From positions 62,126,001-62,186,000 of the forward strand of contig NC_086108.1 in the NCBI RefSeq assembly GCF_963921235.1: a stretch of DNA of 60,000 bases, in the 5' to 3' direction. Of this stretch, positions 23-56,642 are shown piece after piece (position 1 is the stretch's first letter; the number at the start of each line of letters is the position of its first letter). The notes under the pieces were generated by a model. That model was not told where the DNA came from. It saw nothing but the letters and a program-made list of their open reading frames with translations, and did not search any database. This stretch comes from Mobula hypostoma. Taxonomy: Eukaryota. The translations under genes were made by a program, and so were the position numbers.

Positions 23-430
23 ATGTGGAGATCACACTGTGAGAAGAAATTGGCTGTGATATGCACACTAGAACTTAGAAGAGTAAGAGATGACACAAAC
101 AAGATTCTGAGAGTGTGTGACAGAGCTGCATGCTCCTTCCTCAAGACCAAAAATGGGAACATTAAAGGTCAGTTATTGAGGATTGGAATAAAGAAAAAAA
201 TATTTAAGCAGAGAATTGTAAATCTTTCAAATTCTATACCTCAAAGGCCAGAGGGTGCTTATCACTTTGGGAATGCAAGGCTGGGATTAATAAATTTTCA
301 AACACTAAGAGGATCACAAAAAAGGGGAATCGACCAAAATGGCTTGAGGCATTGAGTTAGTCAAGGTCTAAATGACTAGAAAAGCAAGTTCAAAGAGGTG
401 CATGGCTTACTCCTGCTTCTAATTATTATG
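23..430 (+). mobile_element. Highly decayed CR1 LINE 3' fragment
   Basis: Remnants cttagaagagtaagagatga, cagagaattgtaaatct and a cttactcctgcttct tail resemble the CR1 3' ends elsewhere in the window. Confidence 0.55.
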
Positions 431-447
431 CTCTTAGCATTTCATCA

Positions 448-860
448 AAAGTCAAAGTGAAATTTATTATCAAAGAATGTATATGTTAACATATACCACA
501 ATGAGATTCATTTTCTTGCAGGCATTGACAGAAAAATAAAAAATACAATAGAATTTACAAAAAAATATACATAATCAAAGACTAACAAACAATTGATGTG
601 CAAAAGAAGACAAGTTGTACAAACAAAAAATAATAGTAAGAACATGGATTGTAAAGAGTCCTTGGAAGTAAGTCTGTAGGTTGTAGTATCAGTTCAGAGA
701 TGTGCTAAGTGAAGTTATCCATGCAGAACCTACGTGAACCTATAAGAAAGTAGAGGTACTGTCGTGCCTTCTTTATGATGGCACTTACATACTGGTCCTA
801 GGACAGATCCTACGATATGATAATGCAAAGAATTTAAAGCTACTGACCCTCTCCATCATA
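448..860 (-). mobile_element. Decayed Rex1/Babar-type LINE 3' fragment
   Basis: Tail aaagtcaaagtgaaatttattatc and gacagatcc...aatttaaagctactgaccctctcc resemble the reverse complement of the Rex1-type copies at 49.6-54 kb. Confidence 0.5.
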
Positions 861-1022
861 TTTACCATAAATATTGTCCAAGCTACAGTGTACTAGCATT
901 ATGACCCAAAACAGATCCTACATCCATTCAACAGGAATTCTGCAGATGCTGGAAATTCAAGCAACACACATCAAAGTTGCTGGTGAACGCAGCAGGCCAG
1001 GCAGCATCAGTAGGAAGAGGTA

Positions 1023-1064
1023 CAGTCGATGTTTCAGGCCGAGACCCTTCGTCAGGACTAACTG
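1023..1064 (-). ncRNA. Minimal hammerhead ribozyme (GAAACATC variant)
   Basis: Reverse complement reads cagttagtcCTGACGAagggtctcggcctGAAAcatcgactg. Confidence 0.75.
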
Positions 1065-1353
1065 AAGGAAGAGTGAGTAAGGGATTTGAAAGTTGGAGGG
1101 GGAGGGGGAGATCCAAAATGATAGGAGAAGACAGGAGGGGGAGGGATAGAGCCAAGAGCTGGACAGGTGATAGGCAAAAGGGGATACGAGAGGATCATGG
1201 GATAGGAGGTCCGGGAAGAAAGACAAGGGGGGGGGGACCCAGAGGTTGGGCAAGAGGTATATTCAGAGGGACAGAGGGAGAAAAAGGAGAGTGAGAGAAA
1301 GAATGGGTGCATAAAAATAAGTAACAGATGGGGTACGAGGGGGAGGTGGGGCC

Positions 1354-3757
1354 TTAGCGGAAGTTAGAGAAGTCGATGTTCATGCCATCAGGTTGGAGGC
1401 TACCCAGACAGAATATAAGGTGTTGTTCCTCCAACCTGAGTGTGGCTTCATCTTTACAGTAGAGGAGGCCGTGGATAGACATGTCAGAATGGGAATGGGA
1501 TGTGGAATTAAAATGTGTGGCCACTGGGAGATCCTGCTTTCTCTGGCGGACAGAGTGTAGATGTTCAGCAAAGCGGTCTCCCAGTCTGCGTCGGGTCTCG
1601 CCAATATATAAAAGGCCTCATCGGGAGCACCGGACGCAGTATATCACCCCAGTCGACTCACAGGTCAAGGGTTGCCTCACCTGGAAGGCCTGTTTGGGGC
1701 CGTGAATGGTGGTAAGGGAGGAAGTGTAAGGGCATGTGTAGCACTTGTTCCGCTTACACGGATAAGTGCCAGGAGGGAGATCAGTGGGGAGGGATGGGGG
1801 GGACGAATGGACAAGGGAGTTGCATAGGGAGCGATCCCTGCGGAATGCAGAGAGAGGGGGGGAGGGAAAGATGTGCTTAGTGGTGGGATCCCATTGGAGG
1901 TGGCGGAAGTTACGGAGAATAATATGTTGGACCCGGAGGCTGGTGGGGTGGTAGGTGAGGACCAGGGGAACCCTATTCCTAGTGGGGTGGCAGGAGGATG
2001 GAGTGAGAGCAGATGTACGTGAAATGGGGGAGATGCGTTTAAGAGCAGAGTTGATAGTGGAGGAAGGGAAGCCCCTTTCTTTAAAAAAGGAAGACATCTT
2101 ACTCATCCTGAGAGCAGATGCGGTGGAGACGGAGGAATTGCAAGAAGGGGATGGCGTTTTTGCAGGAGACAGGGTGAGAAGAGGAATAGTCCAGATAGCT
2201 GTGAGAGTCAGTAGGCTTATAGTAGACATCAGTGGATAAGCTGTCTCCAGAGACAGAGACAGAAAGATCTAGAAAGGGGAGGGAGGTGTCGGAAATGGAC
2301 CAGGTAAACTTGAGGGCAGGGTGAAAGTTGGAGGCAAAGTTAATAAAGTTAACGAGTTCTGCATGCGTGCAGGAAGCAGCGCCAATGCAGTCGTCGATGT
2401 AGCAAAGGAAAAGTGGGGGACAGATACCAGAATAGGCACGGAACATAGATTGTTCCACAAGCCCAACAAAAAGGCAGGCATAGCTAGGACCCATATGGGT
2501 GCCCATAGCTACACCTTTAGTTTGGAGGAAGTGGGAGGAGCCAAAGGAGAAATTATTAAGAGTAAGGACTAATTCCGCTAGACGGAGCAGAGTGGTGGTA
2601 GAGGGGAACTGATTAGGTCTGGAATCCAAAAAGAAGCGTAGAGCTTTGAGACCTTCCTGATGGGGGATGGAAGTATATAAGGACTGGACATCCATGGTGA
2701 AAATAAAGCGGTGGGGGCCAGGGAACTTAAAATCATCGAAAAGTTTAAGAGCGTGAGAAGTGTCACGAACATAGGTCGGGAGGGATTGAACAAGGGGTGA
2801 TAAAAATGAGTCGAGGTATGCAGAAACGAGTTTGGTGGGGCAGGAGCAAGCTGAGACAATAGGACGGCCAGGACACGCAGGTTTGTGGATCTTGGGTAGG
2901 AGGTAGAAACAGGAAGTGCGGGGTGTGGGAACTATAAGGTTGGTAGCAGTGGATGGGAGATCCCCTGAGCGGATAAAGTCGGTGATGGTGAGGGAGACAA
3001 TGGCCTGGTGCTCCTTAGTGGGGTCACGATCAAGGGGTAAATAAGAGGAGGTATCCGCGAGTTGTCGCTGTGCCTCGGCAAGGTAGAGGTCAGTACGCCA
3101 GACTACAACAGTACCCCCCTTATCAGCGGGTTTAATAATAAGGTTAGGATTAGTGCGGAGGGAGTGGAGAGCAGAGCGTTCCGAAGGAGTGAGGTTGGAA
3201 TGGGGACAAGGTGCGGTGAAGTCAAGACGGTTGATGTCCCTTCGGCAATTAGCGATAAAGAGATCCAGAGCAGGCAGAAGACCAGAGCGGGGTGTCCATG
3301 AAGAAGAGGAGGGTTGAAGACGGGAGAAGGGGTCATCGGTGGAGGTGGAAGAGTCCTTGCTGAAGAAGTAGGCTCGGAGACGGAGACGGCGGAAGAAAAG
3401 TTCCGCATCGTGGCGAACATGGAACTCGCTGAGGTGTGGGTGAAGGGAGACAAACGTGAGGCCCTTACTGAGAACAGAGCGTTCTGCCTCCGACAGTTGA
3501 AGATCGGAGGGGATGGTAAAGACCCAGCACAGATGAGAGCTGGGATCAGAGGTGGGAGGGGGGAGGCTGGGTGTGTCAATGGAGAGGGGAGGGTTGGGGT
3601 GAGAGGAAGATGGAGCCTCTGAGGGCCCAGGAGCTGACGGTGGGATCTGAGGAAGACGGGGCTGCGGAGTGGTGGTGGGGGAAGGGGAGACGGGAGTCAC
3701 AACAGCAGCACATAAAGACCCGGCCTGGAGTTCAAGGTTGGAGTTGCAGTTGGTGCA
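1354..3757 (-). pseudogene. PLE polyprotein (reverse transcriptase + GIY-YIG endonuclease), disrupted
   Basis: ORF 2099..3769 has IKPADKG, LLPKIHK, GRPIVS, MDVQSLYTSI, GVAMG and YIDD. A small deletion/frameshift lies near 2100. The frame continues CKRNKCYTC...GVIYCVRCSR*GLLYIGETRRRLGDRFAEH...MNIDFSNFR to a stop at 1354. Confidence 0.9.
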
Positions 3758-4477
3758 GTGAGGCAACACTTCACCTGTGAGTCGACTGGGGTGATATACT
3801 GCGTCCGGTGCTCCCGATGAGGCCTTTTATATATTGGCGAGACCCGACGCAGACTGGGAGATCGCTTTGCTGAACATCTACGCTCTGTCCGCCAGAGAAA
3901 GCAGGATCTCCCAGTGGCCACACATTTTAATTCCACATCCCATTCCCATTCTGACATGTCTATCCACGGCCTCCTCTACTGTAAAGATGAAGCCACACTC
4001 AGGTTGGAGGAACAACACCTTATCCTCCGTCTGGGTAGCCTCCAACCTGATGGCATGAACATCGACTTCTCTAACTTCCGCTAAAGCCCCACCTCCCCCT
4101 CGTACCCCATCTGTTACTTATTTTTATGCACACATTCTTTCTCTCACTCTCCTTTTTCTCCCTCTGTCCCTCTGAATATACTTCTTGCCCATTCTCTGGG
4201 TCCCCCCCCCGCCATCTTTCTTCCCGGATCTCCTATCCCATGATCCTCTCGTATCCCCTTTTGCCTATCACCTGTCCAGCTCTTGGCTCCATCCCTCCCC
4301 CTCCTGTCTTCTCCTATCATTTTGGATCTTCCCCTCCCCCTCCAACTTTCAAATCCCTTACTCACTCTTCCTTCAGTTAGTCCTGACGAAGGGTCTCGGC
4401 CTGAAACGTCGACTGCACCTCTTCCTACAGATGCTGCCTGGCCTGCTGCATTCATCAGCAACTTTGATGTGTGTTGC
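3758..4477 (+). repeat. Inverted arm of the PLE (GIY-YIG coding end, 3' UTR and hammerhead)
   Basis: Near-identical reverse complement of 961-1680; mirrored ORFs in the ORF track (e.g. 1380..1604- vs 3834..4058+). Confidence 0.95.
4374..4415 (+). ncRNA. Minimal type I hammerhead ribozyme (PLE-associated), intact core
   Basis: cagttAGTC-CTGACGA-a-GGGT(ctcg)GCCT-GAAA-CGTC-GACTg: CUGANGA and GAAA core, stem I AGTC/GACT, palindromic ACGT in place of stem III. Confidence 0.85.
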
Positions 4478-4887
4478 CTACATCCCTTCAATGGAATTGG
4501 CTCAGTAATGTAAAAACTCTCTCCAGAGAAATTTAATCAACTCTGATTGATGACAAGCTTTATGTTAAGGAAAGGTACTGTTTCATGTCATTGCTGGATT
4601 TGCAAACGAGCAAGCTGCAATCAACATTTAGTTTTAAAAGCAGATTTGAAGAACATAAGATATGGTTATCTTTTGATATGTACAGTATGGCCACAATTAA
4701 ATTTAAAAAATGAAATGACAATTAAATGCTTATGATTTTGCTGAAAATAAATTATGATTAACTGAGAAAAGTCTTCTGTCAAACTTGTGAAATACTTAAG
4801 TGACAATTTTTATAAATTGTTTTTTTTTGCAAATGTATTTGAATTTAATTTACATATCCTACCTTTTGATATATGACACAATTTGAC

Positions 4888-6265: not shown

Positions 6266-9200
6266 TTGAGGAGCAAAATTAGGGCATTTGGCCCATCGAG
6301 ACTGCTCCACCATTCTATCATGGCTGATCCTTTTTCCCCCTCCTCAGCCCCACTCCTTGGCTTTCTCCCCATAACCTTTGATGCCATGTCCAATCAAAAA
6401 CTATCAAGCTCTGCCTTAAATACACCCAACGACCTGGCCTCCACAGCTGCCTGTGGTAATAAATTCCAAAAATTCACCACCCTCTGGTGAAAGAAATTTC
6501 TTTGCAACTCTGTTTTAAATGGACGCCCCTCTATCCTAAGGCTATGCCCTCTTGTCCTAGACCGTCCACCATGAGAAACATCCTTTCCACATCTTAGTCT
6601 GTCTAGGCCTTTCAACATTTGAAAGGTTTCAATGAGATCCCCACTCATTCTTCTAAATCCAAAGAGTACAGACCCAGAGCTATCAAATGTTCCTCGTATG
6701 ATAGCACTTTCATTCCTGGAATCATCCTTGTGAACCTCCTCTGAACCCCCTCCAATGCTGGCATATCTTTTCTTGGATGAGGAGTCCAAAACTGTTGATA
6801 ATACTCAAGGTGAGGCCTCACCAGTGCCTTATAAAATTTCAGCATCACATCCCTACCCTTGTATTCTAGACCTCTTGAAACGAATGCTAACATTGCATTT
6901 ACCTTTCTCACCACTGACTCTCCCTGTAAGTTAACCTTCAGGGTGTTCTGCAGAAGGACTCTCAAGTCCTTTTGCATCTCCGATCTTTGGATTTTCTCCC
7001 CATTTAGAAAATAGTCTGCACATTTATTTCTCTACCAAAGTGTATGACCATGCATTTTCCAACATTGTATTTCATTTGCCTCTCTCTTGCCCATTCTCCT
7101 AACCTCTCTAAGTCTTTCTGTAGCCTTCCTGTTTTCTCAATGCTACCTGACCCTCCACCAATCCTCGTATCATTTACAAACTTGGCAACAAAGCCATCTA
7201 TTCCATCATCTAAATCACTGATATACAGCATAAAGAGAAGTGGGCCCAACACTGACCCCTGAAGAACACAAATAGTCACTGGCAGCCAACCGGAAAAGGA
7301 CCCTTTTATTCCCACTCACTGCCTCCTATCTATTAGCCAATGCTCAAGCCATGCCAGTAACATTCCTGTAATACCATGGGCTCTTAACTTGGTAAGCAAC
7401 CTCATGTGTAGCACTTGTCAAAGGCCTTCTGAAAGTCCAAGTATACAAAATCCACTGCATCCCCTTTATCTATCCTACATGTAATTTCATCAAAGAATTC
7501 CAGAAGGATTATCAGGCAAAATTTTCCCTTAAGGAAACCATGCTGACTTTGGCCTATCTTGTCCTGTGTCACCAAATACTCCGTAACCTCATCCTTACCA
7601 AATGACTCCAACATCTTCCCAACCAATGAGGTCAGGCTAACTGGTCTATAATTTACTTTTTGCTGCCTTCCTCCTTTCTTAAAGAGTGGAGTGACATTTG
7701 CAATTTTCCAGTCCTCTGGTACCATGCCAGAGTCCAACGATATATGAAAAATCATTACCAATGCCTCCACAATCTCTTTCATATTCCTAGGGTGCAGTTC
7801 ATCTGGTCCGGGTGTCTTATGTACCTTTAGATCTTTCAGCTTTTTGAGCACCTTCTCCCTTGTAATAGTAACTGCACTCACTTCTCTTCCCTTGTACCCT
7901 TCATCATCTGGCACACTGCAAGTGTCTTCCACAGTGAAGGCTGATGCAAAATACACATTTAGTTCATCTGTCATTTTCTTGCCCCTCATTATTATTTCTT
8001 TGGCCTCATTTTCTAGCGGTCCTATATCCATTCTCATCTGTTTTGTTTTTACATACTTGAAAAAAGCTTTTACTATCCACTTTGATGTTGCTTGCTAGCT
8101 TGCTTTCTTTCATATTTCATCTTTTCCCTCCTAATGATTCTTTCAGTTGCTCTCGGTAGGGTTTTAAAAGCTTCCCAATCCTCTGTCTTCCCACTAATTT
8201 TTGCTTTGTTGTATGCCCTCTCTTTTGCTTTTACATTAGCTTTGACTTCCCTTGTCAGCCACAGTTGCACTATTTTGCTATTTGAGTACTTCTTCATTTG
8301 TGGAATACATCAATCCTGCATCTTCCTCAGTTTTCACAGAAACTCACACCATTGCTGCTCTGCTGTCATCCCTGCCAGCATCTCCTTTCAATTTTCTTTG
8401 GCCAACTCCTCTCTCATAACACTGAAATGCTGCTATGTCAAATTTTACTTTCTCCCAATCAAATTTCAAGTTGAACTCAATCATACTGTGATCACCGTCT
8501 TCTAAGGGTTCCTTTACCTTAAGTTCCCTAATCACCTCTGGTTCATTACGTAACACCCAATCCAGTATAGCTGATCCCCTAGTAGGCTCAACGACAAACT
8601 GCTCAAAAAAGCCACCTCATAGGTATTCAACAAACTCACTCTCTTGAGATCCATCTCCAACCTGATTTTCCCAATCAACCTGCATGTTGAAATCTCCCAT
8701 GAGTATCATAACATTGCCCTTTTGACACGCCTTTCCTATTTCCTGTTGTAAACTGTGGTCCACATCCCAGCTACTGTTGGGAGGCTTGTATATAACTGCC
8801 ATCAAGGTCTTTTACACTCACATTTCCTTAATTCAACCCACAAGGATTCAACACCTTCCAATCCTATGTCACATCTTTCTACTGATTTGATGCCATTCTT
8901 TACCAGTAGAGCCATGCCACCCCCTCTACCTATCTTCCTATCCCTCTGATACAAAGTGTAACATTGGACATTTAGCTTCCAACTACAACCATCATTCAGC
9001 TACGATTCAGTGATGACCACAACATCATACATGACAATCTATAATAGTGCAACAATATCATCCATCTTACTTCTTATACTCTGTGCATTGAGATATAATA
9101 CATTGAGTACTGCATTTGCTACCTTTTTTGATTCTGCGTCCCTAATGCATTGATACTCACCCTGCTGGCTGCAATTAGGTCCTTTCATCTGCTTGCCCTT

Positions 9201-15035: not shown

Positions 15036-15971
15036 ATGCCAGGCAGGATGTTGGAATGCTCCTCTTGCAGGATGTGGGAAGTCAGGGAGCCCTCCGGTGT
15101 CCCTGACAACGACACTTGCAGGAGGTGCATCCAGCTGCAGCTCCTGACAAACCGCGTTAGGGAACTGGAGCAGGAACTGGATGACCTGCGGATCATTCGG
15201 GAGAATGAGGAGATTGTAGATCGTAGCTACAGTGAGGTAGTTACGCCAAAGGAGCAGAGGACAGGAAATTGGGTCACTGTCAGACGAGGGAAGAGGAAAG
15301 GACAGGCAGAGCAGGGTTCCCCTGTGGCCATTCCCCTCAACAACAAGTATACCGCATTGGATACTGTTGGGGGGGATGACTTACCTGGGACTAGCTGCAG
15401 TAGCCAGATCTCTGGCACTGAGTCTGGCTCTGCAGTGCAGAAGGGAGGGGGGAGAAAGAGGAGTGCGGTAGTGATAGGGGACTCGATAGTTAGAGGTGCA
15501 GATAGGAGGTTCTGTGATCGTGACAGAGAATCCAGGATGGTTTGTTGCCTCCCAGGTGCCAGGGTCAAGGATGTCTCTCATTGATTGCATGACATTCTGA
15601 AGTGGGAGGGTGACCAGCCAGATGTCGTGGTGCACATCGGTACCAATGACATAGCAAGGAAGAGTGAGGAGGTCCTGGACAGTGAGTATAGAGAGCTTGG
15701 TAGGAGGTTGAAAAGCAGGACCTCAAGGGTGTTAATCTTAGGATTGCTACCTGTGCTAGGTGCCAGTGAGGGTAGGAATAGGATGCTCTGGAGGAGGAAC
15801 AAGTGGCTGAGGAACTGGTGTAGGGGGCAAGGTTTTAGATTTCAGGATCATTGGGACCTCTTCTGGGGCAGGTGGGACCTGTACAAGAGAGACGGGTTAC
15901 ACTTGAACCACAGGGGGACCAATATCCTTTCAGGGAGGTTTGTTAGTGCTATTGGGGAGGCTTTAAACTAG
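15036..15971 (+). pseudogene. CR1 ORF1: zinc finger/coiled coil plus SGNH esterase, with one premature stop
   Basis: CSSC...CRRC, a leucine-zipper-like stretch, VIGDSIVR, HIGTND and DGLHLN; in-frame TGA at 15582-15584. Confidence 0.9.
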
Positions 15972-15973
15972 AT

Positions 15974-18671
15974 TTGCAGGGGGATGGGAACCAGAGTGCC
16001 AGAGCTGACAGTGTGGCTGGGGTGAAAATAAATGATGTTGAAAGTTTAAGCAAATCCGCTGATAGAAAGGTTGAAAAGCAGGATAGTGGTGGTGGTAAAA
16101 ATCTTCTGAGGTGTATATATTTCAATGCTAGGAGTATTGCGGGGAAGGCCGATGAGTTGAGGGCGTGGATTGACACGTGGAATTATGATGTTGTAGCAAT
16201 TAGTGAAACTTGGCTACAGGAGGGGCAGGACTGGCAGCTTAATATTCCAGGGTTCCGATGTTTCAGATGTGATCGAGGCAGAGGAATGAAAGGTGGGGGA
16301 GTAGCATTGCTTGTTAGGGACAATATTACAGCAGCGCTCAGGCAGGACAGATTAGAGGGCTTGTCTACTGAGTCCTTATGGGTGGAGCTGAGAAACAGGA
16401 AAGGTATGGCCACATTAGTGGGATTGTATTACAGACCACCCAATAGTCAACGAGACTTGGAAGATCAAATCTGCAGAGAGATAGCAGGCAACTGCAAGAA
16501 ACATAAAGTTGTGGTGGTAGGGGATTTTAATTTTCCATACATTGATTGGGACTCCCATACTGTTAGGGGTCTAGATGGTTTAGAGTTTGTAAAATGTGTT
16601 CAGGAAAGTTTTCTAAATCAATATATAGAGGGACCAACTAGAGGGGATGCAATATTGGATCTCCTGTTAGGAAACGAATTAGGGCAAGTGACAGAAGTCT
16701 GTGTAGGGGAGCACTTTGGTTCCAGTGATCATAACACCATTAGTTTCAATTTAATCATGGACAAAGATAGATCTGGTCCTAGGGTTGAGGTTCTGAACTG
16801 GAAGAAGGCCAAATTTGAAGAAATGAGAAAGGATCTAAAAAGCGTGGATTGGGACAGGTTGTTCTCTGGCAAAGATGTGATTGGTAGGTGGGAAGCCTTC
16901 AAAGGGGAAATTTTGAGAGTGCGGAGTTTGTATGTTCCTGTCAGGATTAAAGGCAAATTGAATAGGAATAAGGAACCTTGGTTCTCAAGGGATATTGCAA
17001 CTCTGATAAAGAAGAAGAGGGAGTTGTATGAAATGTATAGGAAACAGGGGGTAAATCAGGTGCTTGAGGAGTATAAGAAGTGCAAGAAAATACTTAAGAA
17101 AGAAATCAGGAGGGCTAAAAGAAGACATGAGGTTGCCTTGGCAGTCAAAGTGAAGGATAATCCAAAGAGCTTTTACAAGTATATTAAGAGCAAAAGGATT
17201 GTAAGGGATAAAATTGGTCCTCTTGAAGATCAGAGTGGTCGGCTTTGTGCTGAACCAAAGGAAATGGGGGAAGATCTTAAATAGGTTTCTTGCATCTGTA
17301 TTTAATAAGGAAGCTGGCATGAAATCTATGGAATTGAGGGAATCAAGTAGTGAGACCATGGAAACTGTACAGATTGAAAAGGAGGAGGTGCTTGCTGTCT
17401 TGAGGAAAATTAAAGTGGATAAATCCCCGGGACCTGACAGAGTGTTCCCTCAGACCTTGAAGGAGACTAGTGTTGAAATTGCGGGGACCAATTAGACCAA
17501 TCTGTTGGAGTTTTTCGAGGAGGTTACCAGGAAAGTGGATGAAGGGAAGGCAGTGGATATTGTCTACATGGACTTCAGTAAGGCCTTTGACAAGGTCCTG
17601 CATGGGAGGTTAGTTAGGAAAATTCAGTCACTAGGTATACATGGAGAGGTGGTAAATTGGATTAGACATTGGCTCGATGGAAGAAGCCAGAGAGTGATGG
17701 TAGAGAATTGCTTCTCTGAGTGGAGGCCTGTGACTAGTGGTGTGCCACAGGGATCAGTGCTGGGTCCATTGTTATTTGTCATCTATATCAATGATCTGGA
17801 TGATAATGTGGTAAATTGGATCAGCAAGTTTGTTGATGATACAAAGATTGGAGGTGTAGTAGACAGTGAGGAAGGTTTTCAGAGCCTGCAGAGGGACTTG
17901 GACCAGCTGGAAAAATGGGCTGAAAAATGGCAGATGGAGTTTAATACTGACAAGTGTGAGGTATTGCACGTTAGAAGGACAAACCAAGGTAGAACATACA
18001 GGGTTAATGGTAAGGCACTGAGGAGTGCAGTGGAACAGAGGGATCTGGGAATACAGATACAAAATTCCCTAAAAGTGTCGTCACAGGTAGATAGGGTCGT
18101 AAAGAGAGCTTTTGGTACATTGGCCTTTATTAATCAAAGTATTGAGTATAAGAGCTGGAATGTTATGATGAGGTTGTATAAGGCATTGGTGAGGCCGAAT
18201 CTGGAGTATTGTGTTCAGTTTTGGTCACCAAATTACAGGAAGGATATAAATAAGGTTGAAAGAGTGCAGAGAAGGTTTACAAGGATGTTGCTGGGACTTG
18301 AGAAACTCAGTTACAGAGAAAGGTTGAATAGGTTAGGACTTTATTCCCTGGAGCGTAGAAGAATGAGTGGAGATTTGATAGAGGTATATAAAATTATGAT
18401 GGGTATAGATAGAGTGAATGCAAGCAGGCTTTTTCCACTGAGGCAAGGGGAGAAAAAAACCAGAGGACATGGGCTAAGGGTGAGGGGGGAAAAGTTTAAA
18501 GGGAACATTAGGGGGGGCTTCTTCACACAGAGAGTGGTGGGAGTATGGAATGAGCTGCCAGACGAGGTGGTAAGTGCGGGTTCTTTTTTAACATTTAAGA
18601 ATAAATTGGACAAATACATGGATGGGAGGTGTATGGAGGGATATGGTCCGTGTGCAGGTCAGTGGGACTAG
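15974..18671 (+). pseudogene. CR1 ORF2: APE endonuclease + reverse transcriptase (frameshift and deletion)
   Basis: YFNARS, ISETW, YYRPPN, GDFN, SDHN; MDFSKAFD, GVPQGSVLGP, KFVDDTK. Frameshift near 17270 and deletion near 17490. Confidence 0.92.
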
Positions 18672-20732: not shown

Positions 20733-22305
20733 ATAAACACAAGAGGTTCTGCAGATGTTGGAAATCCAGAGCAACACGCACAGAATACTGGGAAAACTCA
20801 GCAGGCCAGCTAGTGTCTATGGAAATGAATAAATAGTCAACTTACAACAGATTGGAAAGAAAGGGGGGAAGAAGCCAAAATCAGAAGGGGTATAGACTAG
20901 AATGTGATGTTTGGGGGGGGGAGAGGGAAGGGGAGGGAGGAGTACAGGCTAGAGGTGAAGCCACGTGGGTGGAAGTGGAAGTAAGAAGAAGGGAGGTGAT
21001 AGGTGACGACGGACTGGAATCTGAAAGGAGAGGAGAATGGACCATGGGTGAAAGAGAAGGAAGAGGGGTGATAATCAGGCAAGGAAAAGGGGAAAGGTGA
21101 GAGGAGAGCCGGAGTGGGTGGATGAAAGAAGAGGGAAAGGGGAAGGGGGAAAGGGGAACAATTACCGGTTGGAGAAATTTATGTTTATTACATCAAGTTG
21201 AAGGCTACCCAGACAGAATTTGAGGGGTTGCTCCTCCAACCTGAGATTGACCTCATTGTGGCAGCAGGCGAGGCCATGGTCTGACAAATTGGAATGTGAA
21301 TGGGGTTTGGAATTAAAATTGCTGGCCAACGGAATATCCTGCTTTTTGCAGATAGAGCGAAGATACTCAACAAAGAGTCCTCCAATCTCTGTCGGGTCTC
21401 ACAAAAGTGGCAGAGACCAACCTGGGAACACCAGATACAATACGCAACTCCAAAAGATTCACGTGAAGTATTGATTCACCTGGAAGGACTATTTGGGGCC
21501 TGAGTGGCAGTGAGGGAGGAGGAGGATAGGCAGGTGTAGCAGCAATGTTTGAGGAGGGAGATTAGTCGGGATGCACGAATGGAAAAGGGAATCATGGAGG
21601 GAGAGATCCCTGCAGAAAGCAGAAAGTGTGGGCTGTAAAGATATGTTTGGTGGTAGGATCCTGTTGAAAATGGTGGAAGTTATGGAGAATAAAAGCTGTA
21701 TGCAAAGGCTCATGGAGTGGTTGGTGAGAACAAAAGGAACTCTATCTCTGTTAAGACTGTGGGAAGATGGGGTGAGGGCAGAGGTCCAAAAATGAAGGAG
21801 ATGCAGGTGAGGGTGGAAGAAAGGAAACCCTATTCCTTGAAGAAGGAAGACATCTCTTATGTTCTGCAAAGGAAAGTCCCATCCTGGGAACAGATGCGGT
21901 AGAGATGAAGGGACTGAGAAAAAGAAACGGCATCTTTACAGGAGACAAGGTGGGAAGAGATATAGTTAGGATAGCCGTGGGAGTTGGTACCTTTATAGAA
22001 AATATCAGTAGACAGTTTGTTGCCAGAATGGAGAGATGAAGATAGAGAGATCAAGAGAGGGGAGAGAGGTGTCAGAAATGGACCAAGTGAATTTAAAGAC
22101 AGGGTGGAATTTGGAGGCAAAGTTGATGAAACTGATGAGCTCAACATGGGTGCATGCAGCAGCACTAATAAGGCCGTCAATGTAGCACAAAAGGAATTGG
22201 GAAGCATTACCAGGGAAGGCTTAGAACATGGGCTGTTCCATGTAGTCAATGAAAAGCAGGCATAGCTGGGGCCCATGTGGGTGCCCATGGCCACACCTTG
22301 AGTCT
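20733..22305 (-). mobile_element. Older, decayed Penelope-like element (RT C-terminus, GIY-YIG, tail)
   Basis: [35 protein letters not shown] and LYRICSQD fragments, colinear with the 932-3757 element. Confidence 0.88.
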
Positions 22306-22378
22306 GGAGAAAGAATGACAAGTATTGTCTTGTCTGCCTGAAGAACGTTGTGAAATGTTCTGAACTGCCCATACTTAC

Positions 22379-31104: not shown

Positions 31105-31315
31105 TCATTTCCCTATCACCTCCAGCTTGTCCCCGTTCTCCTTCCCCACCTTTTTATTTGATATCTTCCATCTTCCTTTCCAGTCCTGATGAAAGGGCTC
31201 AGGCAGTAACATTGACTATTTATTCATTTCCATAGATGGTGCCTGACCTGCTGAGTTCCCCCAACATTTTGTGCGAGTTGCTCTGGATTTTCAGCATCTG
31301 CAAAACCTTTTGTGC
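31105..31315 (+). mobile_element. PLE 3' tail with a degenerate hammerhead
   Basis: cagtcCTGATGAaagggctcaggcaGTAAcattgact...gatggtgcctgacctgctgagttcc...cagcatctgca. Confidence 0.7.
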
Positions 31316-37167: not shown

Positions 37168-38597
37168 ATTCTGGCATGGTCCCGGAGGACTGGAAGATTG
37201 CAAATGTCAATCCACTCTTTAAAAAGGGAGGAAGGCAAAAGAAAGGAAATCATAAGCCAGTTAGCTTAACCTCAGTGGCTGGGAAAGTGTTAGAGTCTAT
37301 TATTAAGGATGAGGTTTTGAGGTACTTGGAGACTAATGACAAAGTAAGTCAAAGTCAGCATGGTTTCTGTAAAGGGAAATATTGCCTGATAAATCTGTTA
37401 AGCAGAGGATGTCATTTACCTGGATTTTCAGAAGGCGCTTGATAAGGTGCCACACACGAGGCTGCTTAACAAGATAAAATCCTACGGTCTTAACGGAAAG
37501 ATACTGGAATGGATAGCGGAATGGCTGACAGGCAGGAGGAAGTGAATGGGAATAAAAGGGGCCTTTTCTGGCTGGCTGCCGGTGACTAGTGGTGATCCTC
37601 AGGGGTCAGTATTGGGACCGCTGCTTTTCATATTGTTTGTCAATGATTTCGATAATGGAATTGATGGCTTTGTGGCAAAGTTTGCGGATGATATGAAGAT
37701 AGGTGGAGGAGTGGGTAGTGCTAAGGAAGCAGTGTGATTGCAGTAGGACAGAAAAATTGGAAGAATGGGCAAAAAAGTGGCAGATGGAATACAGTACTGG
37801 GAAATGTATGATAATACATTTTGGTAAAAGGAACAATAGTGTAGACTATTATCTAAATAGAGAGAATTTCAAATATCAGAAGTGCAGAGGGACTTAGGAG
37901 TCTTCATGCAAGATCCCCACAAGGTTAATTTACAGGTTGGATCTGTGGTAAGGAAGGCAAATGCAATGTTGGCATTTATTTCAAGGGGAATAGAATAAAA
38001 AAAGCAAGGAAATAATGCTGAGCCTTTATAAGACACTAAGTCAGACCGCACTTAAGAGTGTTGTCAACAGTCATGGGCCCCATATCTCAGAAAGTATGTG
38101 TTGTCATTGGAGAGAGTCCAGAAGAGGTTCATGAGGATGATTCTGGGAATGAAGGAGTTAACAGCATTTAGTAGCTTTGGGCCTGTACTCACCAGAATTT
38201 AGAAAAATGTGGGGGGGTCTCATTGAAAACTACCAAATGTTGAAAGGACCAGATAGGGTGGATGTGGAAAGGATGTTTCCTATGGTGGGGCTATCCAGAA
38301 CTAGAGGGCACAGCCTCAAAATTGAGGGGCAACCCTTTAGAACAGAGGTAAGGAGGAATTTTTTTAGCCAGAGAGCAGCAAGTCAGTGGAATGCACTGCC
38401 ACAGACTGTGGTGGAGGTCAAGTCTGTGGGTATACTTAAGAGGGAACTTGATCGTTTCCTGATCAATCAGGGCATATGGAAAGAAGGCAGGTGTATGGTG
38501 TTGTGGGATCCGGGATTAACCACGATGGAATGGCTGAGCAAAGTTGATGGGATAAATGGCCTAACTCTGCTCCTAAGTTTTATGGTCTTATGGCTCT
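37168..38597 (+). mobile_element. 5'-truncated, decayed CR1
   Basis: PEDWKIANVNPLFKKG, QGSVLGPLLF and KFADDMK; tail tttatggtcttatgg. Confidence 0.92.
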
Positions 38598-39177
38598 AAA
38601 TGGCTTTAGAACTAAATGGCATCTGGTCAAAAGTAGGCTCGCAGTCAGAGAAAAAACCGGAGTAGTCTACCATTACCTCTGCTGAAGCCAAGATGCTGCA
38701 TCATGAAGCAGTAATCAGAAAAGTAAGAATATGCAGTTGTTCATATGGATATAAACCTACATGCTTTGCATGGTGGATTTGGTTTCCATTGTTTTGACTC
38801 ATTTGAATATTATTTGTTCCTATTACTTTCTTCTTGCTGGGTTTTGGTTAGTCCACAGTAACTTGCTTCTCGCATGTGCTGAAAGTCAAGGCATGAATTG
38901 GCACCTAACATTAAGGAGCTGTGAAAGCAATGTTGCTTACTTGACTGGTTTGTATTGGGGAGCTAACTGGGGACAGTGAGGCTGTCAGGTAAAATGGATG
39001 GATGGAGCCCAAAGAAACTCTGCAATAATTAGCACATCATAGGCAGGAATGAGCATTATTCATGCTGCACTGGTCACATCACATTCCTCCTTGGAACCAC
39101 AAGTGCCCTTTATCTTTTGCAACACTCACAACACGCTGGAGGAACTCTGCAGGTCAGGCAGCATCCGTGGAAACGAT

Positions 39178-39215
39178 CGGTCGACATTTCGGGCCGGAAC
39201 CCTTCGTCAGGACTG
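39178..39215 (-). ncRNA. Minimal hammerhead ribozyme of a second PLE family (GAAATGTC variant)
   Basis: Reverse complement reads cagtcCTGACGAaGGGT(tccg)GCCCGAAAtgtcgaccg; stem II is kept despite a different sequence. Confidence 0.75.
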
Positions 39216-39334
39216 TAGGGGGAAGGGGCAGAGGCCCTATAAAGAAGGTGGGGGGAGGGTGGGAAGGAGAAGGCTGGTAGGTTCCAAGTGAAAAACCAGT
39301 AAGGGGAAAGATAAAGGGGTGGGGGAGGGGAGGC

Positions 39335-39503
39335 AGGGAGGTGATAGGCAGGAAAGGTGAAGACAGAATAGGGGAAAACACAATGGGTAGTAGAAGGAGG
39401 TGGAACCATGAGGGAGGTGATAGGCAGGAAAGGTGAAGAAGGAAAAAAGGAAAACACAATGGGTAGTAGAAGGAGGCGGAAGCATGAGGGAGGTGATAGG
39501 CAG
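39335..39503. repeat. ~76-bp tandem duplication (about 2.2 copies) in the PLE 3' UTR
   Basis: agggaggtgataggcaggaaaggtgaag...aaaacacaatgggtagtagaaggagg...catg is repeated. Confidence 0.85.
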
Positions 39504-41891
39504 CTGGGGGAGGGGGCAGAGTGACATAGGGATAGGGGAAGGGAGGGGGAGGGAATTACCGGAAGTTGGAGAATTCTATGTTCATACCAAGGGGCTGGAG
39601 ACTACCTAGACAGTATATGAGGTGTTGCTCCTCCAACCTGAGTTTAGCCTCATCATGGCAGTAGAGGAGGCCATGTATGGACATATCTGAATGGGAGTGG
39701 GAAGCAGAGTTGAAGTGGGTGGCTACTGGGAGATCCTGTCTGTTTTGGCAGATGGAGCAGAGGTGCTCGACGAAGCGGTCCCCAATCTGCGTCGGGTTTC
39801 ACCGATGTAGAGGAGGCCGCACCGGGAACACCGGATGCAATAGATGACCCCAACAGACTCACAAATGAAGTGTTGCCTCACTTGGAAGGACTGTTTGGGG
39901 CCCTGAATGGTGGCAAGAGAGGAGGTGTAGGGACAGGAGAAGCACTTGTGCTTACAGGGATAAGTGCTCTTTATCTTTTTCTATGTAGAATGCACTGCCT
40001 AAGGTGGTAATGAAGGGCAGTACTCTTTCAACATTTAAAAAGCATCTGGACAAACACTTGAAGCACAAAGTCATTGTGGACTATTAAACAAGAGTTTGTA
40101 AATGGGATTAGTCTCGTCAACGTGGATATGCTGGGTCTGTTGCTACATTGTATGACATTTTAATGCAACAAGATCACTTCAGCTCTGAGCCCACTCATTT
40201 AGGCATCTCAATGTCAAAGGGTATTTGCTTATTGGTCCAAACCATTGGATCTCTTATGGATACAACAGCAATGTTTACAACGTGTTTTCTTGTTTCTGCA
40301 TAGACAGTTTTGAGGTACAAAAAGATCAGCGAAGACAGAATGTTACAAGATAAAACATTTTGTTAGCTGCCTTAGAATCTTTCGCACACAACATGAATCT
40401 CTTTGTGTAGTTATACCTCAGCTGCATGTTGATGAAATGCAAATAATGCCATTTGAAGAATATTCCAGGTGATTTATGCCTCAACTGTCATTGGCATAAG
40501 ACCTTAAGACCATAAGATATAGGAGCAGAATCAGGGCATTTGACCCATCGAGTCTGATCTGCCACTTCATCATTTTTCCTCTCAGCCCCAATCTCCTGCC
40601 TTCTGCCCATATTCCTTCATGCCCTGACCAATAAAGAATCTATCAACCTCTGCCTTAAATATATATAAAGACTTGGCCTCCAAAGCTGCCCGTGGCAATG
40701 AATGCCACAGATTCACCACTCTCTGGCCAAAGAAATTCCTCCTCAACTCTGTTCTAAAAGAATGACCCTCTATTCTGAGGCTATGTCTTCTGGTCTTAGA
40801 CACTCCCACCATCTGAAACAGCCTACCCACATCCACCCTATCAAGGCTTTTCACCATTTGATAGGTTTCAATTAGGCGACAACTCATTCTTCTGAATTCC
40901 AGTGAATAGAGACCCAGAGCCATCAAATGCTCTTCTATGACAAGCCGTTTAATCCTGGAATTGTTTTTGTTAACCTCCTTTGAGCCCTCTCCAGTTTCAG
41001 CACATCCTTTTTAAGATAAGGAGCACAAAACTGCTCACAGTACTCCATGTGAGGCCTCACCAGTGCTTTATAAAGTCTCACCATTACATCCTTGTTTTTT
41101 ATTCCAGTCCTCTTGATATGAATGTTTACATCACACTTGCCTTCCTCACCACAGACTCAACCTGCAAATTAACCCTTCAGGAGTCCTGCTCAAGGACTTC
41201 CAAATCCTTTTGTGCCTCAGATTTTTGTATTTTCTCTCCACTTAGAAAACAGTCAGCCCTTTCACTTTTTCTAACAAAGTGCATGACCATACACTCCCTG
41301 ACACTGTGTTCCATCTGCCATTTCTTTGCCCATTCTCCTAATCTGCTAAGTCCTTCTGTAGCCTCTCTATTTTCTAAAAACTACTGGCCCCTCCATCTAA
41401 CCACATCATCTGCAAAATTTACAATAAAGCTGTCAATTCCATTATCCAAATCATTGACATAAAACGTAAAAAGAATCGGTCCAGACACAGACCCCTGTGG
41501 AGCGCCACTAGTCACCGGCAGCCAACCAGAAGAGGCTCGCTTTATTCCCACACTTCGCCTTCTGCCAATTAGCTACTGCTTTATCCATGCTAGAATCTTT
41601 CCGGTAACACCATGGGGTCTTAACTTGTTAAGCAGCCTCATGTGTGGCACATTGTCAAAGGCCTTCTGAAAATTCAAACACATAGCATCAACTGATTCTC
41701 CTTTGTCTATCCAGCCTGTTATTTCTTCAAAAAACTCCAAAAGATTTTTCAGACAAGATTTTCACTTGAGGAAGCCATGCTGACTACGGCCTATTTTATC
41801 ATGTGCCTCCAAGTACTCTGAAACCACATACTTAACAATCGACTCCAACACCTTCACAGCAACCGAGATCAGACAAACTGGCTGTAATTTC

Positions 41892-42280
41892 AAACAACAG
41901 GAATTCTGCAGATGCTGGAAATTCAAGCAACATACATCAAAGTTGCTGGTGAACGCAGCAGGCCAAGCAGCATCTGTAGGAAGAGGTGCAGTCGATGTTT
42001 CAGGCCGAGACCCTTCGTCAGGACTAACTGAAGGAAGAGTGAGTAAGGGATTTGAAAGTTGGAGGGGGAGGGGGAGATCCAAAATGATAGGAGAAGACAG
42101 GAAGGGGAGGGATAGAGCCGAGAGCTAGACAGGTGATAGGCAAAAGGAGATACGAGAGGATCATGGGACAGGAGGTCCAGGAAGAAAGACAAGGGCGGGG
42201 GGGGGGGGTGACCCAGAGGATGGGCAAGAGGTAAATTCAGAGGGACAAAGGGAGAAAAAGGAGAGTGAGAGAAAGAATGT
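41892..42280 (-). mobile_element. Solo PLE 3' tail with hammerhead, nested in a CR1
   Basis: Near-identical to ~930-1310; TSD gct(g/a)taatttc at 41881-41891 and 42281-42291. Confidence 0.92.
41989..42030 (-). ncRNA. Minimal hammerhead ribozyme (GAAACATC variant)
   Basis: Reverse complement reads cagttagtcCTGACGAagggtctcggcctGAAAcatcgactg. Confidence 0.75.
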
Positions 42281-44640
42281 GCTATAATTTCCTTTTTCTG
42301 CCTCACTCACTTCTTGAAGAGTGGAGTGACATTTGCAATTTTCCAGTTCTCTGGAACCATTCCAGAATCTAGTGATTCTTCGAAGATCAGTGCTAATGCC
42401 TCCATTATATCTTCAGCCACCTCTTTCAGAACCCTGAAGTATGCACTATCTGGTCCAGGTAACTTATCAACCTTTAGACCTTCCAGTTTCCCAAGAACCT
42501 TCTCTCTAGTAATGGTAACTTCATGACCCATGACAGCTGGAACTTCCACCATACTGCTATTGTCTTCCACAGTGAAGACTAATACAAAATACTTATTCAG
42601 TTTATCAGGCATTTCTTTGTCCCCCATTACTACCTCTCCAACATAGTTTTCCAGCAGTCTAATATCCACTCTTACCTCTCCTTTACACTTAATGTATCTG
42701 AAAAACTTCTGGTATCCTCTTTGATATTATTGCCCAGCTTACTTTCATATTCCATCTTTACCTTCTCAATGAGTTTTAGTTGCCTTCTGTTGGTATTTAA
42801 AAGCTTCCCAATCTTCTAACTTCCCACTAATATTTGCTCTATTATATGCCCTCTCTTTGGCTTTGACGTCCCTTGGTAACCACAGTTATGTCATCTTTCC
42901 TTTAGAATACTTCTTCCTCTTTGGGATTTCTATATCACGTGTCTTCTGAATTGCTTCTAGAAATTCCAGTCATTGCTGCTCTACTGTCATCCCTGCCAGC
43001 ATTCTTTTCCAATCAATTCTGGCCAACTCCCTTCTCATGCCTTCGTAATTTCCTTTATTCCACTGTAATACAACATGATCAATTGCCCCAAGGGTTCTTT
43101 TACCTTAAGCTCGTTAATCAATTCCAGTCCATTGCACAACACCCAATCCAGAATAGTTGAACCCATAGTAGGCTCGACCACAAGCTGCTGTAAAAAGTCA
43201 TCTCGTAGGCATTCCAGAAAATCCCCCTCTTGGAATCCAGCACCAACCTGATTTTCCCAATCTATCTGCATATTGAAATCCCCCATGACTATTGTAACAT
43301 TACCCAATTGGCATGCATTTTCTTCCTCCCACTGTAACTTGTAGACTACATGCTTACTACTGTTTAGCATTCTGTATATAACTCCCTTCAGAGTTTTTTT
43401 TACCCTTGCAGTTCCTTAGCTCTATTCACAATGATTCAACAGCTTCTGACCCCATGTCACCTCTTTTTAATGACTTAATTTCATTTTTACCAACAGAGCC
43501 ACGCCACACTATCAGCCTTTCTGCCTATCTTTTTGATACAATGTGTATCCTTGGACATTAAGCTCCCATCTAGAATCTTCTTTCAGCCATGGTTCAGTGA
43601 TGCCTACAACATCATACATGCCAGTCTGTAGCTAGTTATATCCTCACATCCTTACTTGGAAAGATCCTGAAGGATGCTAAAGCCAGTGGTAACTTTGACA
43701 GTAATGGTAGAGAATGGCCTTAAAATCTAATTGGGAACAAGTCCTATTCCAATGGCTGGAAATTTTACCATGATCTTGAGAATCCTGAGACTATGAGTTG
43801 GGACACATCAAGGACACCTCTTTGACGATTCCTTCCTCTTGTGGTATCAGAGGTCTGTAATTTCTGCTCCTGCTGCTGTTCACCATGATTCTCAACCAAA
43901 ATATGCCATTAAGACTCCAATTAAAGCTCCAAAGTACAAGACGTGTGGTAATTTCAAATTCCTGAACTCCAAAGGTGAACCAAAAGTTAGTCCTCCCTCC
44001 AGTTCTGAAATGATTTCTCACAGGGTTTTTTTACCTCCTCAAATTAATGCCCACTGCATTAGGAAAATAGATCATTAATTCTTTATGTGAAACATAGGAC
44101 AAACTCACCTCATTCACTTTTGAGTTGCATAAGGTCCAAAAAACTCGCATATTAATTTAGATAAATACTGCTGAGTAATTAACCTATGGAAATTTCCAGA
44201 GGGAGGGATGATGTATTTGCTTGTACATTATCTGATACACTTGCGATTGGAGGAAGTTGGCAGGTTGGAGATGTTTCCCAGCATGCTGTCAATTTCAATA
44301 CACATAATCCTCACTTGTTTCCAAGCACACTTATTCACATACATTTAAAAAAAATACTACATTTATGAAAATAAACTGTGAATGGCTTAAAATCCAATAG
44401 AATTAAGAAAACAATACAAATTCATAAAAGGAATGGAGAACCAAGACAACTGGGAAAAATAACACTTCTGAAATTGTCTCAAATGTTGATATCATAAAAA
44501 AGAATAAGGGAACTATTTTTCTGAGGAAATTCTCTGCTCGTTAATTCCCCTTGAACAAGTAAATATATCACTAAATATATATCAAAATTAAGCATTTTCA
44601 AAAATCTTTATCTCTTATATTAAACAAAGGACAAGCTTAC

Positions 44641-54707: not shown

Positions 54708-56160
54708 TAGTCAAGTCGTCACTTTTTATTGTCATTTCGACCATAACTGCTGTTACAGTACACAGTAAAAACAAGACAACGTTTTTCAGGACAATGGTGC
54801 TACATGAGACAATACAAAAACTACACTGAACTGTGTAAAAACAACACAAAAACTACACTAGACTACAGACCTACCCAGGACTGCATAAAATGCACAAAAC
54901 AGTGCAGGCATTACAATAAATAATAAACAAGACAATAGGCACAGTAGAGAGCAGTAGGTTGGTGTCAGTCCAGGCTCTGGGTATTGAGGAGTCTGATGGC
55001 TTGGGGGAAGAAATTGTTACAGAGTCTGGTCGTGAGAGCCCGAATGCTTCGGTGCCTTTTGCCAGATGGCAGGAGGGAGAAGAGTTTGTATGAGGGGTGC
55101 GTGGGGTCCTTCATAATGCTATTTGCTTTGCGGATGCAGCGTGTGCTGTAAATGTCTGTAATGGCGGGAAGAGAGACCCTGATGATCTTCTCAGCTGACC
55201 TCACTATCCGCTGCAGGGTCTTGAGATCCGAGATGGTGCAATTTCTGAACCAGGCAGTGATGCAGCTGCTCAGGATGCTCTCAGTACAACCTCTGTAGAA
55301 TGTGGTGAGGATGGGGGGTGGGAGATGGACTTTTCTCAGCCTTCGCAGAAAGTAGAGACGCTGCTGGGCTTTCTTTGCTATGGAGCTGGTGTTGAGGGAC
55401 CAGGTGAGATTCTCCGCCAGGTGATCACCAAGAAATTTTAGATTATGAGAACACTCAGTCCTGTTTCATTGTCATTTAGAAATGCATACATGCATTAAGA
55501 AATGATACAATGTTTCTCCAGAGTGATATCACAGAAAACAGGACAAACCAGAGGCTAACACTGACAGAACGACATAATTATAACATATAGTTACAGCAGT
55601 GCAAAGCAATACCATAATTTGAAGAACAAACCATGGGCACGGTAAAAAAAGTCTCAAAGTCCCGAGTGGATCGACTCATGAGTCCCTGATAGCAGGCGGC
55701 AAAAGGGAGAAACTCCCTGCCATAAACCTCCAGGCACCATCAACTTGCTGATGCCTTGGAAGCAGCCGACCACAGCCGACACCAAGTCCTCTGGTGCTCT
55801 TAACGATCTCTATGGAGGAGCCGTCAATGTTCAGCGGAGAGTGGTCGCTCCGTGCTCTCCTGAAGTCAACAACCATTCTTTTGTTTTGTTCATATTCAGA
55901 GACAGGTTGTTGGCTCTGCACCAGTCCGTTAGCCGCTGCAGCTCCTCGCAGTATGCTGACTCATCGTTCTTGCTGATGAGACCCACCACGGTAGTGTCAT
56001 CGATGAACTTGATGATGTGGTTCGAGCTGTGTGTTGCAGCACAGTCATGGGTCAGCAGAGTGGACAGCAGTGGACTGAGCACACAGCCCTGGGGGGCCCC
56101 CATGATCAGCGTGATGGTGTTGGAGATACTGCTTCCGATCCGGACTTACTGAGGTCTCCC
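54708..56160 (-). mobile_element. Rex1/Babar-type LINE RT C-terminal fragment, interrupted at ~55438-55792
   Basis: GAPQGCVLSPLLSTLLTHDC, IIKFIDDTTVVGLI and NFFPQAIRLLN. Confidence 0.88.
55438..55792 (-). mobile_element. Short retroelement 3' fragment nested in the Rex1-type LINE
   Basis: Splits the host sequence caccaagaaatt|tggtgctcttaacgatct and has its own AT-rich tail. Confidence 0.6.
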
Positions 56161-56169
56161 AGAGATTCT

Positions 56170-56642
56170 GAGTAACACGCAACACACACAAAATACTGGA
56201 GGAACTCAACAAGTCAGGCAATATCTATGGAAACCACATTTCAGGCCTCCATCAAGACTGGAAAAAAAGGTGGCAGAAGCCAAAAGAAGAAGGTGAAGAG
56301 AGAGGGAGGAGTACAAACTGGCAGTTGATAGCAGGTAAAGTACTAAAGAAAGAATTTGATTGGAGAGAATAGTGAACCATAGAAGAAAGGAATGGAGAGG
56401 CACCAGAGGGAGCTGATGGTCAGGTGAGGAGAAGAAAAGGGGCGAGAGGGGAACCAGAATGGGAAATGGACAAAAAGAGAGAAAGGGAGGTATAGAAATT
56501 ACTAGTTCCCAGTAGTTAGAGAAATTGGTGTTCATGCCATCAGGTCGGAGACTACCCAGACAGAATATGGGGTTGCTCCTCCAACCTGAATACAACCTCC
56601 GTGGCAGTACCAGAGGCCATGCCAGAATGGGAATGGGAAGTC
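56170..56642 (-). mobile_element. Decayed PLE 3' fragment (end of GIY-YIG plus tail)
   Basis: ORF 56206..56595 has LGSLRPDGMNTNFSN; tail aacacacacaaaatactggaggaactcaacaagtcaggca; hammerhead degenerate. Confidence 0.8.

Follow-up and report, generated by a model that had tools for sequence, protein, structure and literature searches.

How does a retroelement come to stand in a genome together with an inverted copy of its own 3' part? The question is raised by a locus in a 60,000-nt stretch from Mobula hypostoma (contig NC_086108.1, positions 62,126,001 to 62,186,000; this whole stretch is called the window below), where a Penelope-like element (PLE) occupies positions 917 to 4491 and carries the same 720-nt segment twice, in opposite orientations. 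The unit is one dead, ordinary PLE insertion in a known layout; it is without a function of its own, and nothing points to one. We consider it probable (roughly 0.7) that a staggered cut left two 3' ends, that each of these served as primer for one cDNA at its own site, and that both cDNAs were then end-joined. Publications are cited by their PubMed Central (PMC) numbers, and what is taken from them refers to the sections that deal with the point at hand. The parts of the unit are as follows.

917 to 931, no strand: left target-site duplication (TSD); its last 3 letters (929-931) could equally belong to the end of the element, which leaves a shorter unambiguous stretch.
932 to 960, minus strand: one-sided PLE tail of 29 bp, or 32 bp if the 3 overlapping letters are counted; the right end is without a tail.
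961 to 1680, minus strand: left arm, the 3' 720 bp of the long copy, with the end of the GIY-YIG coding part, the 3' region and a hammerhead.
3756 to 3757, no strand: head-to-head junction, two letters (CA) unexplained by the listed family continuation and without a palindrome.
3758 to 4477, plus strand: right arm, an inverted 5'-truncated short copy without a tail, with a TGA as in the left arm.
4477 to 4491, no strand: right TSD, whose first letter is common to the right arm.

An initial annotation of this DNA had described segment 961-1680 as recurring inverted at 3758-4477 and the whole as bracketed by a single 15-bp TSD, and both descriptions are borne out. The arms form an inverted repeat of 720 nt each around a spacer of 2077 nt; they align without gaps and are unlike at 24 of 720 sites (17 transitions and 7 transversions; Kimura two-parameter divergence 0.034, Poisson interval 2.1-5.0%). 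The direct repeat CCTACATCC(A/C)TTCAA, at 917-931 and 4477-4491, encloses the unit with 1 mismatch; when 40-bp stretches of the window were paired at random, none of 2991 pairs matched as well (15 bp, at most 1 mismatch), the best reaching 14. The annotated anatomy had overlooked the 29-bp tail, which separates the left TSD from its arm and has no counterpart on the right. Read along the plus strand, the order is TSD, tail, long copy reversed to about 3757, two letters, short copy forward and TSD. Hence the outer termini of the unit are both 3' ends of the element, while the 5'-truncated ends face each other at the centre. On the element the two termini lie 29-32 bp apart, and both positions serve as end points across the whole family. 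Target and element have 3 bases in common at the left end and 1 at the right.

The unit is not unusual, because publications describe this layout as the usual one for PLEs (PMC8557442, PMC3846280): an inverted 5'-truncated copy stands at the 5' end, and a tail of 30-40 bp is often one-sided (PMC8557442). The Pen2a_Av element of Adineta vaga has the inverted layout within a 9-bp TSD (PMC3846280). The published combination of direct or inverted pseudo-long terminal repeats (pLTRs), one-sided tail and TSD is found here with a tail of 29-32 bp; the annotation had recorded, as a general point, that PLEs form such pLTRs and carry minimal hammerheads.

Further, a purified PLE protein of Anolis cuts and extends both target strands, and it initiates at a pair of neighbouring RNA sites, one at either boundary of the tail (PMC11167929). 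We therefore suggest, by likeness to that system, the following course. The element protein (acting in trans if the stop shared by the arms pre-existed in the source) would make a staggered cut with 3' overhangs of about 15 nt. The top-strand 3' end would prime a cDNA at the outer start site, including the tail and copying about 2.8 kb, and the bottom-strand 3' end would prime at the inner start site, copying 0.72 kb. The two cDNAs, made on an RNA template or templates from one source lineage, would then be end-joined head to head with a slip of 1-2 letters, and fill-in would create the TSD. Such dual priming directly yields a short arm that ends at the inner site without a tail. The initial annotation had instead spoken of an inversion or a twin-priming-like integration. 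In that wording the claim is without support, as the 3' 720 bp occurs in duplicate and the unit has an element 3' end at either terminus. Twin priming of L1 yields two unlike parts of one RNA that do not overlap (PMC2837659); its outcome is a rearrangement without duplication, and we rejected twin priming for this reason.

The behaviour of the family was followed in contigs from four public sequencing runs, each of a different study (X1, X5, X9 and X12; X1 is possibly the source sample), aligned to window positions 300-3790. It should be noted that summed contig depth is not a copy count and that the depth percentages are rough; statements on end points rest on the best 24 of 6188 loose ends, and those on letter differences on the best 40 of 145. 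Runs X9, conjectured to be RNA, and X12 have no depth in the 300-416 bin or at 901 and are not usable there. The family is extremely abundant and 3'-biased, with 328,354 aligned contigs in X1. Contigs end before 929 in 253 (X1) and 241 (X5) records, before 933 in 264 (X1), 271 (X5) and 13 (X12) records, and before 960 in 156 (X5) and 24 (X9) records. These largest end clusters are both boundaries of the tail, with A-rich flanks, and the unit takes one such end point at each terminus. Two other copies in the window display the same pair of end types, the one at 41892-42281 stopping at the tail site and the one at about 39120 at the inner site, each within a TSD of its own. Among 15 of the 1138 joints listed, one changes strand (982/1553). 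A metagenome scan for the 32-base end pattern gave 0 matches.

Eight of the difference sites lie in the left arm. At 6 of them the right arm carries the letter that prevails in the family, and at 2 both arms are alike. At site 1618 a letter unlike both arms makes up 97.7, 93.5, 95.3 and 97.1% of the depth in the four runs, and at site 1203 it makes up 98.3, 98.9, 100 and 100%. The letters shared by the arms at 1618 and 1203 account for at most 2.3% and 1.7% of X1 depth and at most 6.5% and 1.1% of X5 depth. As both arms carry these rare letters, they come from one source lineage, which together with the single TSD backs the earlier claim that both arms arrived in one event. A 43:15 excess of window-A over window-T changes relative to the family was also considered as strand-biased mutation; we rejected this, because base composition explains the excess (G 1054, C 437; p 0.67).

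What was inserted is a PLE that had been reported as reverse transcriptase (RT) and GIY-YIG coding sequence on the minus strand. Two parts of the open reading frame (ORF) are left.

2102 to 3757, minus strand: 5'-truncated RT frame with the DKG motif and YIDD, stopping at a deletion and frameshift near 2099-2109.
1354 to 2109, minus strand: C-terminal part of the ORF, with thumb and linker, a CX4CXXC finger and the GIY-YIG endonuclease with TGA at 1618-1620.

The RT matches Pfam RVT_1 with E 9.8e-7 and 29.1 bits, slightly below the cut-off of 29.6, and the two ends carrying GIY-YIG score 15.5 and 16.5 bits, below the cut-off of 22.6. The reported coding content is nevertheless upheld by tblastn against a full-length relative, which gave 54% over 520 aa and 45% over 249 aa; tblastn against full-length relatives also confirmed the order of RT followed by a C-terminal GIY-YIG. 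This order and a DKG motif upstream of the RT core (KPADKGG in frame 3757-2102), of the kind named for PLEs in PMC8557442, support the identification as a PLE. Between RT and endonuclease lies a linker finger (CKRNKCYTC, about 1732-1758). A CX2-5CxxC linker is common to 64 of 66 homologues of at least 790 aa. It marks Neptune and Nematis and is missing in Penelope/Poseidon (PMC8557442), so this endonuclease-positive element is placed by its CX4CXXC linker motif in the Neptune/Nematis type. The closest named protein to the ORF is from Mobula hypostoma itself (90% identity over 70% of the query).

The reading frame is broken in several places. The long copy is without the N-terminal coding part, its match to a 904-aa relative beginning at residue 145, and to this 5' truncation are added the deletion with frameshift and the TGA at 1618-1620. 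The TGA replaces the second cysteine of the endonuclease CxxC, which belongs to a CCHH finger between GIY and YIG and is kept in 52 of 66 long homologues; the short copy carries the identical TGA, while the family majority has another letter. The source lineage of both arms thus probably had the endonuclease stop already, and would have been copied in trans. The ATG that follows the hammerhead was considered as a start of the ORF and rejected, as a stop is reached after 16 codons.

For the age of the insertion a third copy of the same family in the window is of use.

41892 to 42281, minus strand: third copy, 94% identical and tailed, ending at the tail site, without an inverted arm.

It sits in a long interspersed nuclear element (LINE) within an intron of the host gene MYSM1 and has an 11-bp TSD, GCT(G/A)TAATTTC. 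Against this copy the two arms show 10 and 6 changes in 348 columns, i.e. both arms are altered. With four adjacent poly-C sites left out, the arms differ from each other at 4 of 44 CpG bases and at 10 of 672 other sites (Fisher p 0.008), and the differences are evenly spread (longest identical run 141, p 0.29). The mismatch in the TSD (1/15) was likewise counted in favour of ageing after insertion. At two sites where the arms are unlike, the family is itself divided: 1148, which is non-CpG (70/30), and 1030, which is CpG (75/25).

Several points weigh against the reading of two primed cDNAs. The priming steps are inferred, and the element studied in vitro is a Poseidon, not a Neptune-type element, with which an inverted insertion was not built in the experiments described (PMC11167929). 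The arms differ at the family-polymorphic sites 1148 and 1030, with the left arm agreeing with the third copy, and our knowledge of the family differences covers 40 of 145 sites. No listed contig within 300-3790 bridges any junction, the X1 piece at 826-952 reaching 21 letters into the element. The intronic setting, further, rests on exons missing from the window and not on exons seen. Last, the inner junction fits a fold-back of one cDNA equally well.

In such a fold-back a single cDNA (or an antisense template) would turn on a short inverted match and copy its own 3' part, and the endonuclease would resolve the intermediate at the tail. The arms would then be identical at birth, and dating in the manner of long terminal repeats (LTRs) would be valid. 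The idea is proposed in the Discussion of PMC3846280, and 'EN-mediated resolution', EN being the endonuclease, is named in PMC8557442. It draws support from an inverted match of 3-4 letters between the end of the long copy and 1678-1683, from the two rare letters found in both arms, and from the CpG enrichment and even spread of the arm differences. We still regard it as unlikely, since the junction is without a palindrome, unlike the rotifer cases, and since the short arm ends at the inner family end point without a tail, where a second cut would be needed.

Chance and later events can be weighed against the same observations. In a family with so many copies, two independent insertions might hit the same place, or the inverted arm might have been made or homogenised afterwards, by duplication or gene conversion. 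Inverted repeats can convert each other, and conversion could account for the rare letters common to both arms. The identical run of 141 is not unusually long, however, and leaves no long homogenised tract, for which reason we rejected gene conversion between the arms. One TSD lies around both pieces, the junction holds neither a second TSD nor host DNA, and the geometry repeats a pattern seen class-wide, so that this family of explanations seems very improbable to us. Even less credit is due to an assembly artefact in which a chimeric or mis-joined read gave rise to the inverted arm. Assemblies are known to suffer from the inverted structures of PLEs (PMC8557442), and the inner junction is unbridged among the listed contigs. 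A fold-back artefact would, however, give near-identical arms, but here the 24 differences show a CpG bias; the right arm stops at a biological end point, beyond which comes the TSD, and the window is without N.

On priming at both 3' ends, the differences between the arms may have arisen after the insertion or before it. The initial annotation had proposed that they date the insertion as LTR divergence does. The difference spectrum fits ageing, but the two family-polymorphic sites and an ambiguous contig speak against a simple clock. That contig, from run X5 (organism B), has another letter at window position 901 and ends 31 letters away at the last base of the TSD; it could be an empty allele or a variant bubble. 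The X5 flank differs from the window in 2 of about 616 letters and one indel (about 0.3%). If the site is empty in organism B, about 2 arm differences (upper bound 8) would be expected to postdate the insertion, as against the 24 seen, and an empty site in so close a relative would for this reason be incompatible with 24 post-insertion changes. We lean slightly towards arms that were identical at insertion, and regard LTR-style dating of the unit as plausible but unproven. It is possible, though rather doubtful, that the arms were already unlike on landing; different RNAs or repeat units of one non-autonomous, endonuclease-dead lineage would then have been primed, and the insertion would be far younger than an arm divergence of 3.3% would imply. 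A thin search of the literature found no dating of PLEs by arm divergence.

The arms also carry the hammerheads that had been noted in each of them.

1023 to 1060, minus strand: left-arm minimal type I hammerhead motif, with A at position 16.2 and the 15.2-16.2 pair lost.
4378 to 4415, plus strand: right-arm minimal type I hammerhead motif, with core and helix III pair intact.

They were found with a descriptor of the minimal type I motif after PMC4209133, run on both strands of all 60 kb, which gave 3 matches, one per arm and one in the third copy at 41989-42026 (minus strand); an Rfam search of the window gave 0 matches up to E 1. The matched motifs have a 5-bp stem I and a bulged stem II, as in PMC4209133. 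The earlier observation holds for the presence of a motif in both arms, but the core of the left one is altered, reading GAAAC-A-UC against GAAAC-G-UC in the right arm. The 15.2-16.2 pair is lost through a CpG change in both the left arm and the third copy, and about 25% of the family depth has this change. Minimal motifs require a partner for cleavage (PMC4209133). The hammerheads of the two arms sit on opposite strands, so a single transcript holds only one of them, and a cis dimer of the two was rejected for the same reason. The lone predicted hammerhead of a transcript would be buried inside the 720-bp stem, and on the MYSM1-sense strand the sole arm hammerhead has the broken helix III pair. 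In one PLE assayed in vitro, hammerhead cleavage was dispensable for insertion (PMC11167929).

Whether such a stem would be made depends on the surroundings. A domain scan covering 140 of 173 non-repeat frames gave SWIRM and JAB matches that identify MYSM1, encoded on the minus strand; its nearest known protein is one of 861 aa from a stingray.

20311 to 56920, minus strand: MYSM1 coding exons, residues about 142-787 of the 861-aa stingray protein.

The exon ending at about 20311 (residue about 787) has a GC-type donor, AG/GCAAGT. The last approximately 74 residues, in the two last coding exons, have no match in the 60-kb window (scores of 21-29 against maxima of about 100), while as a control an exon present in the window scores 104 of 111. 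Provided that MYSM1 is complete and collinear, the unit probably lies in one of its introns, the one that follows the exon with its end at about 20311 and is longer than 20 kb; this placement in a long intron is a new point of the present analysis. As the unit seems intronic, a host transcript with both arms is likely. The stem of about 720 bp that the initial annotation had foreseen for any transcript is in keeping with a computed arm duplex of -1497 kcal/mol, with 15 mismatches after G-U pairs and perfect runs of up to 141 bp. MYSM1 pre-mRNA thus probably folds, as a by-product, an intronic stem of the kind that ADAR edits. Precedent makes editing of this stem likely: Penelope repeats are heavily edited in a lizard (PMC5625713) and hyper-edited in Xenopus tropicalis (PMC10636886), and inverted Penelope copies produce small interfering RNA in Drosophila (PMC3681739). 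Circularisation of an exon by the arm pair was rejected, since no MYSM1 exon lies between the arms.

Other repeats in the window include further PLE copies and LINE remnants.

About 39120 to 39967, minus strand: tail-less copy of a related PLE family (78%) that stops at the inner site; TSD of about 18 bp, and a 76-bp internal tandem duplication (39335-39503).
20747 to 20809, 21168 to 22313, 31182 to 31305 and 56514 to 56589: older PLE fragments (69-88%), MYSM1-sense except 31182-31305.
15947 to 17281 (plus strand), 54968 to 56145 (minus strand), 6269 to 9043 and 37170 to 43630: LINE remnants with an open 445-aa endonuclease frame and RT fragments.

The LINE remnants include several decayed copies of one family. 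The right arm is antisense to the older PLE fragments. Pairing between it and the 41.9-kb copy (92% over 355 bp), with several exons in between, is conceivable, but the left arm is a much nearer partner.

This single locus, a decayed copy of a very abundant family in a published layout, matters little in itself but is useful as a data point. Units of this kind together with sequenced close relatives could test, for the inverted arms of PLEs, one-template against two-template models, as well as whether arm divergence dates insertions. If the arms were indeed unlike on landing, loci like this one would prove directly, from genomic sequence, that a PLE dimer can carry out two-template dual priming, and every one of them would seed intronic double-stranded RNA (dsRNA), here in MYSM1 pre-mRNA. 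We speculate that each intronic unit is a self-contained dsRNA source, which may explain the heavy editing of Penelope in lizard and frog.

Compared with known systems, the unit shares with Penelope-derived dsRNA (PMC3681739, PMC5625713, PMC10636886) long, near-perfect inverted arms in one potential transcript. It is closest in form to Pen2a_Av of Adineta vaga and the scheme in Fig. 2 of PMC8557442, having an inverted 5'-truncated copy placed head to head at the 5' end, a one-sided tail in the 30-40-bp class, one TSD round the unit and a hammerhead in the terminal repeats. It differs from Pen2a_Av in that a direct upstream pLTR is absent and the long copy is itself truncated, in that the ray arm of 720 bp includes endonuclease coding sequence and the junction is without a palindrome, and in a TSD of 15 bp as against 8-10 bp in the rotifer. 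With Poseidon of Anolis carolinensis (PMC11167929) it has in common two adjacent end points bounding the tail, the apparent extension of both target strands, A/T-rich flanks at the family ends and a hammerhead upstream of the tail. However, the ray element has the CX2-5CxxC linker that Penelope/Poseidon is without, its hammerhead is separated by about 60 bp from the tail downstream, and no ORF start was found in the hammerhead. As in twin or dual priming of L1 (PMC2837659), both target 3' ends appear to have primed, there is one TSD and the inner junction is without clear microhomology; but L1 inverts a different upstream part of the RNA and deletes between, whereas the ray unit repeats the 3' segment. 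It thus resembles the proposed 'dual priming' more than L1 twin priming (PMC2837659).

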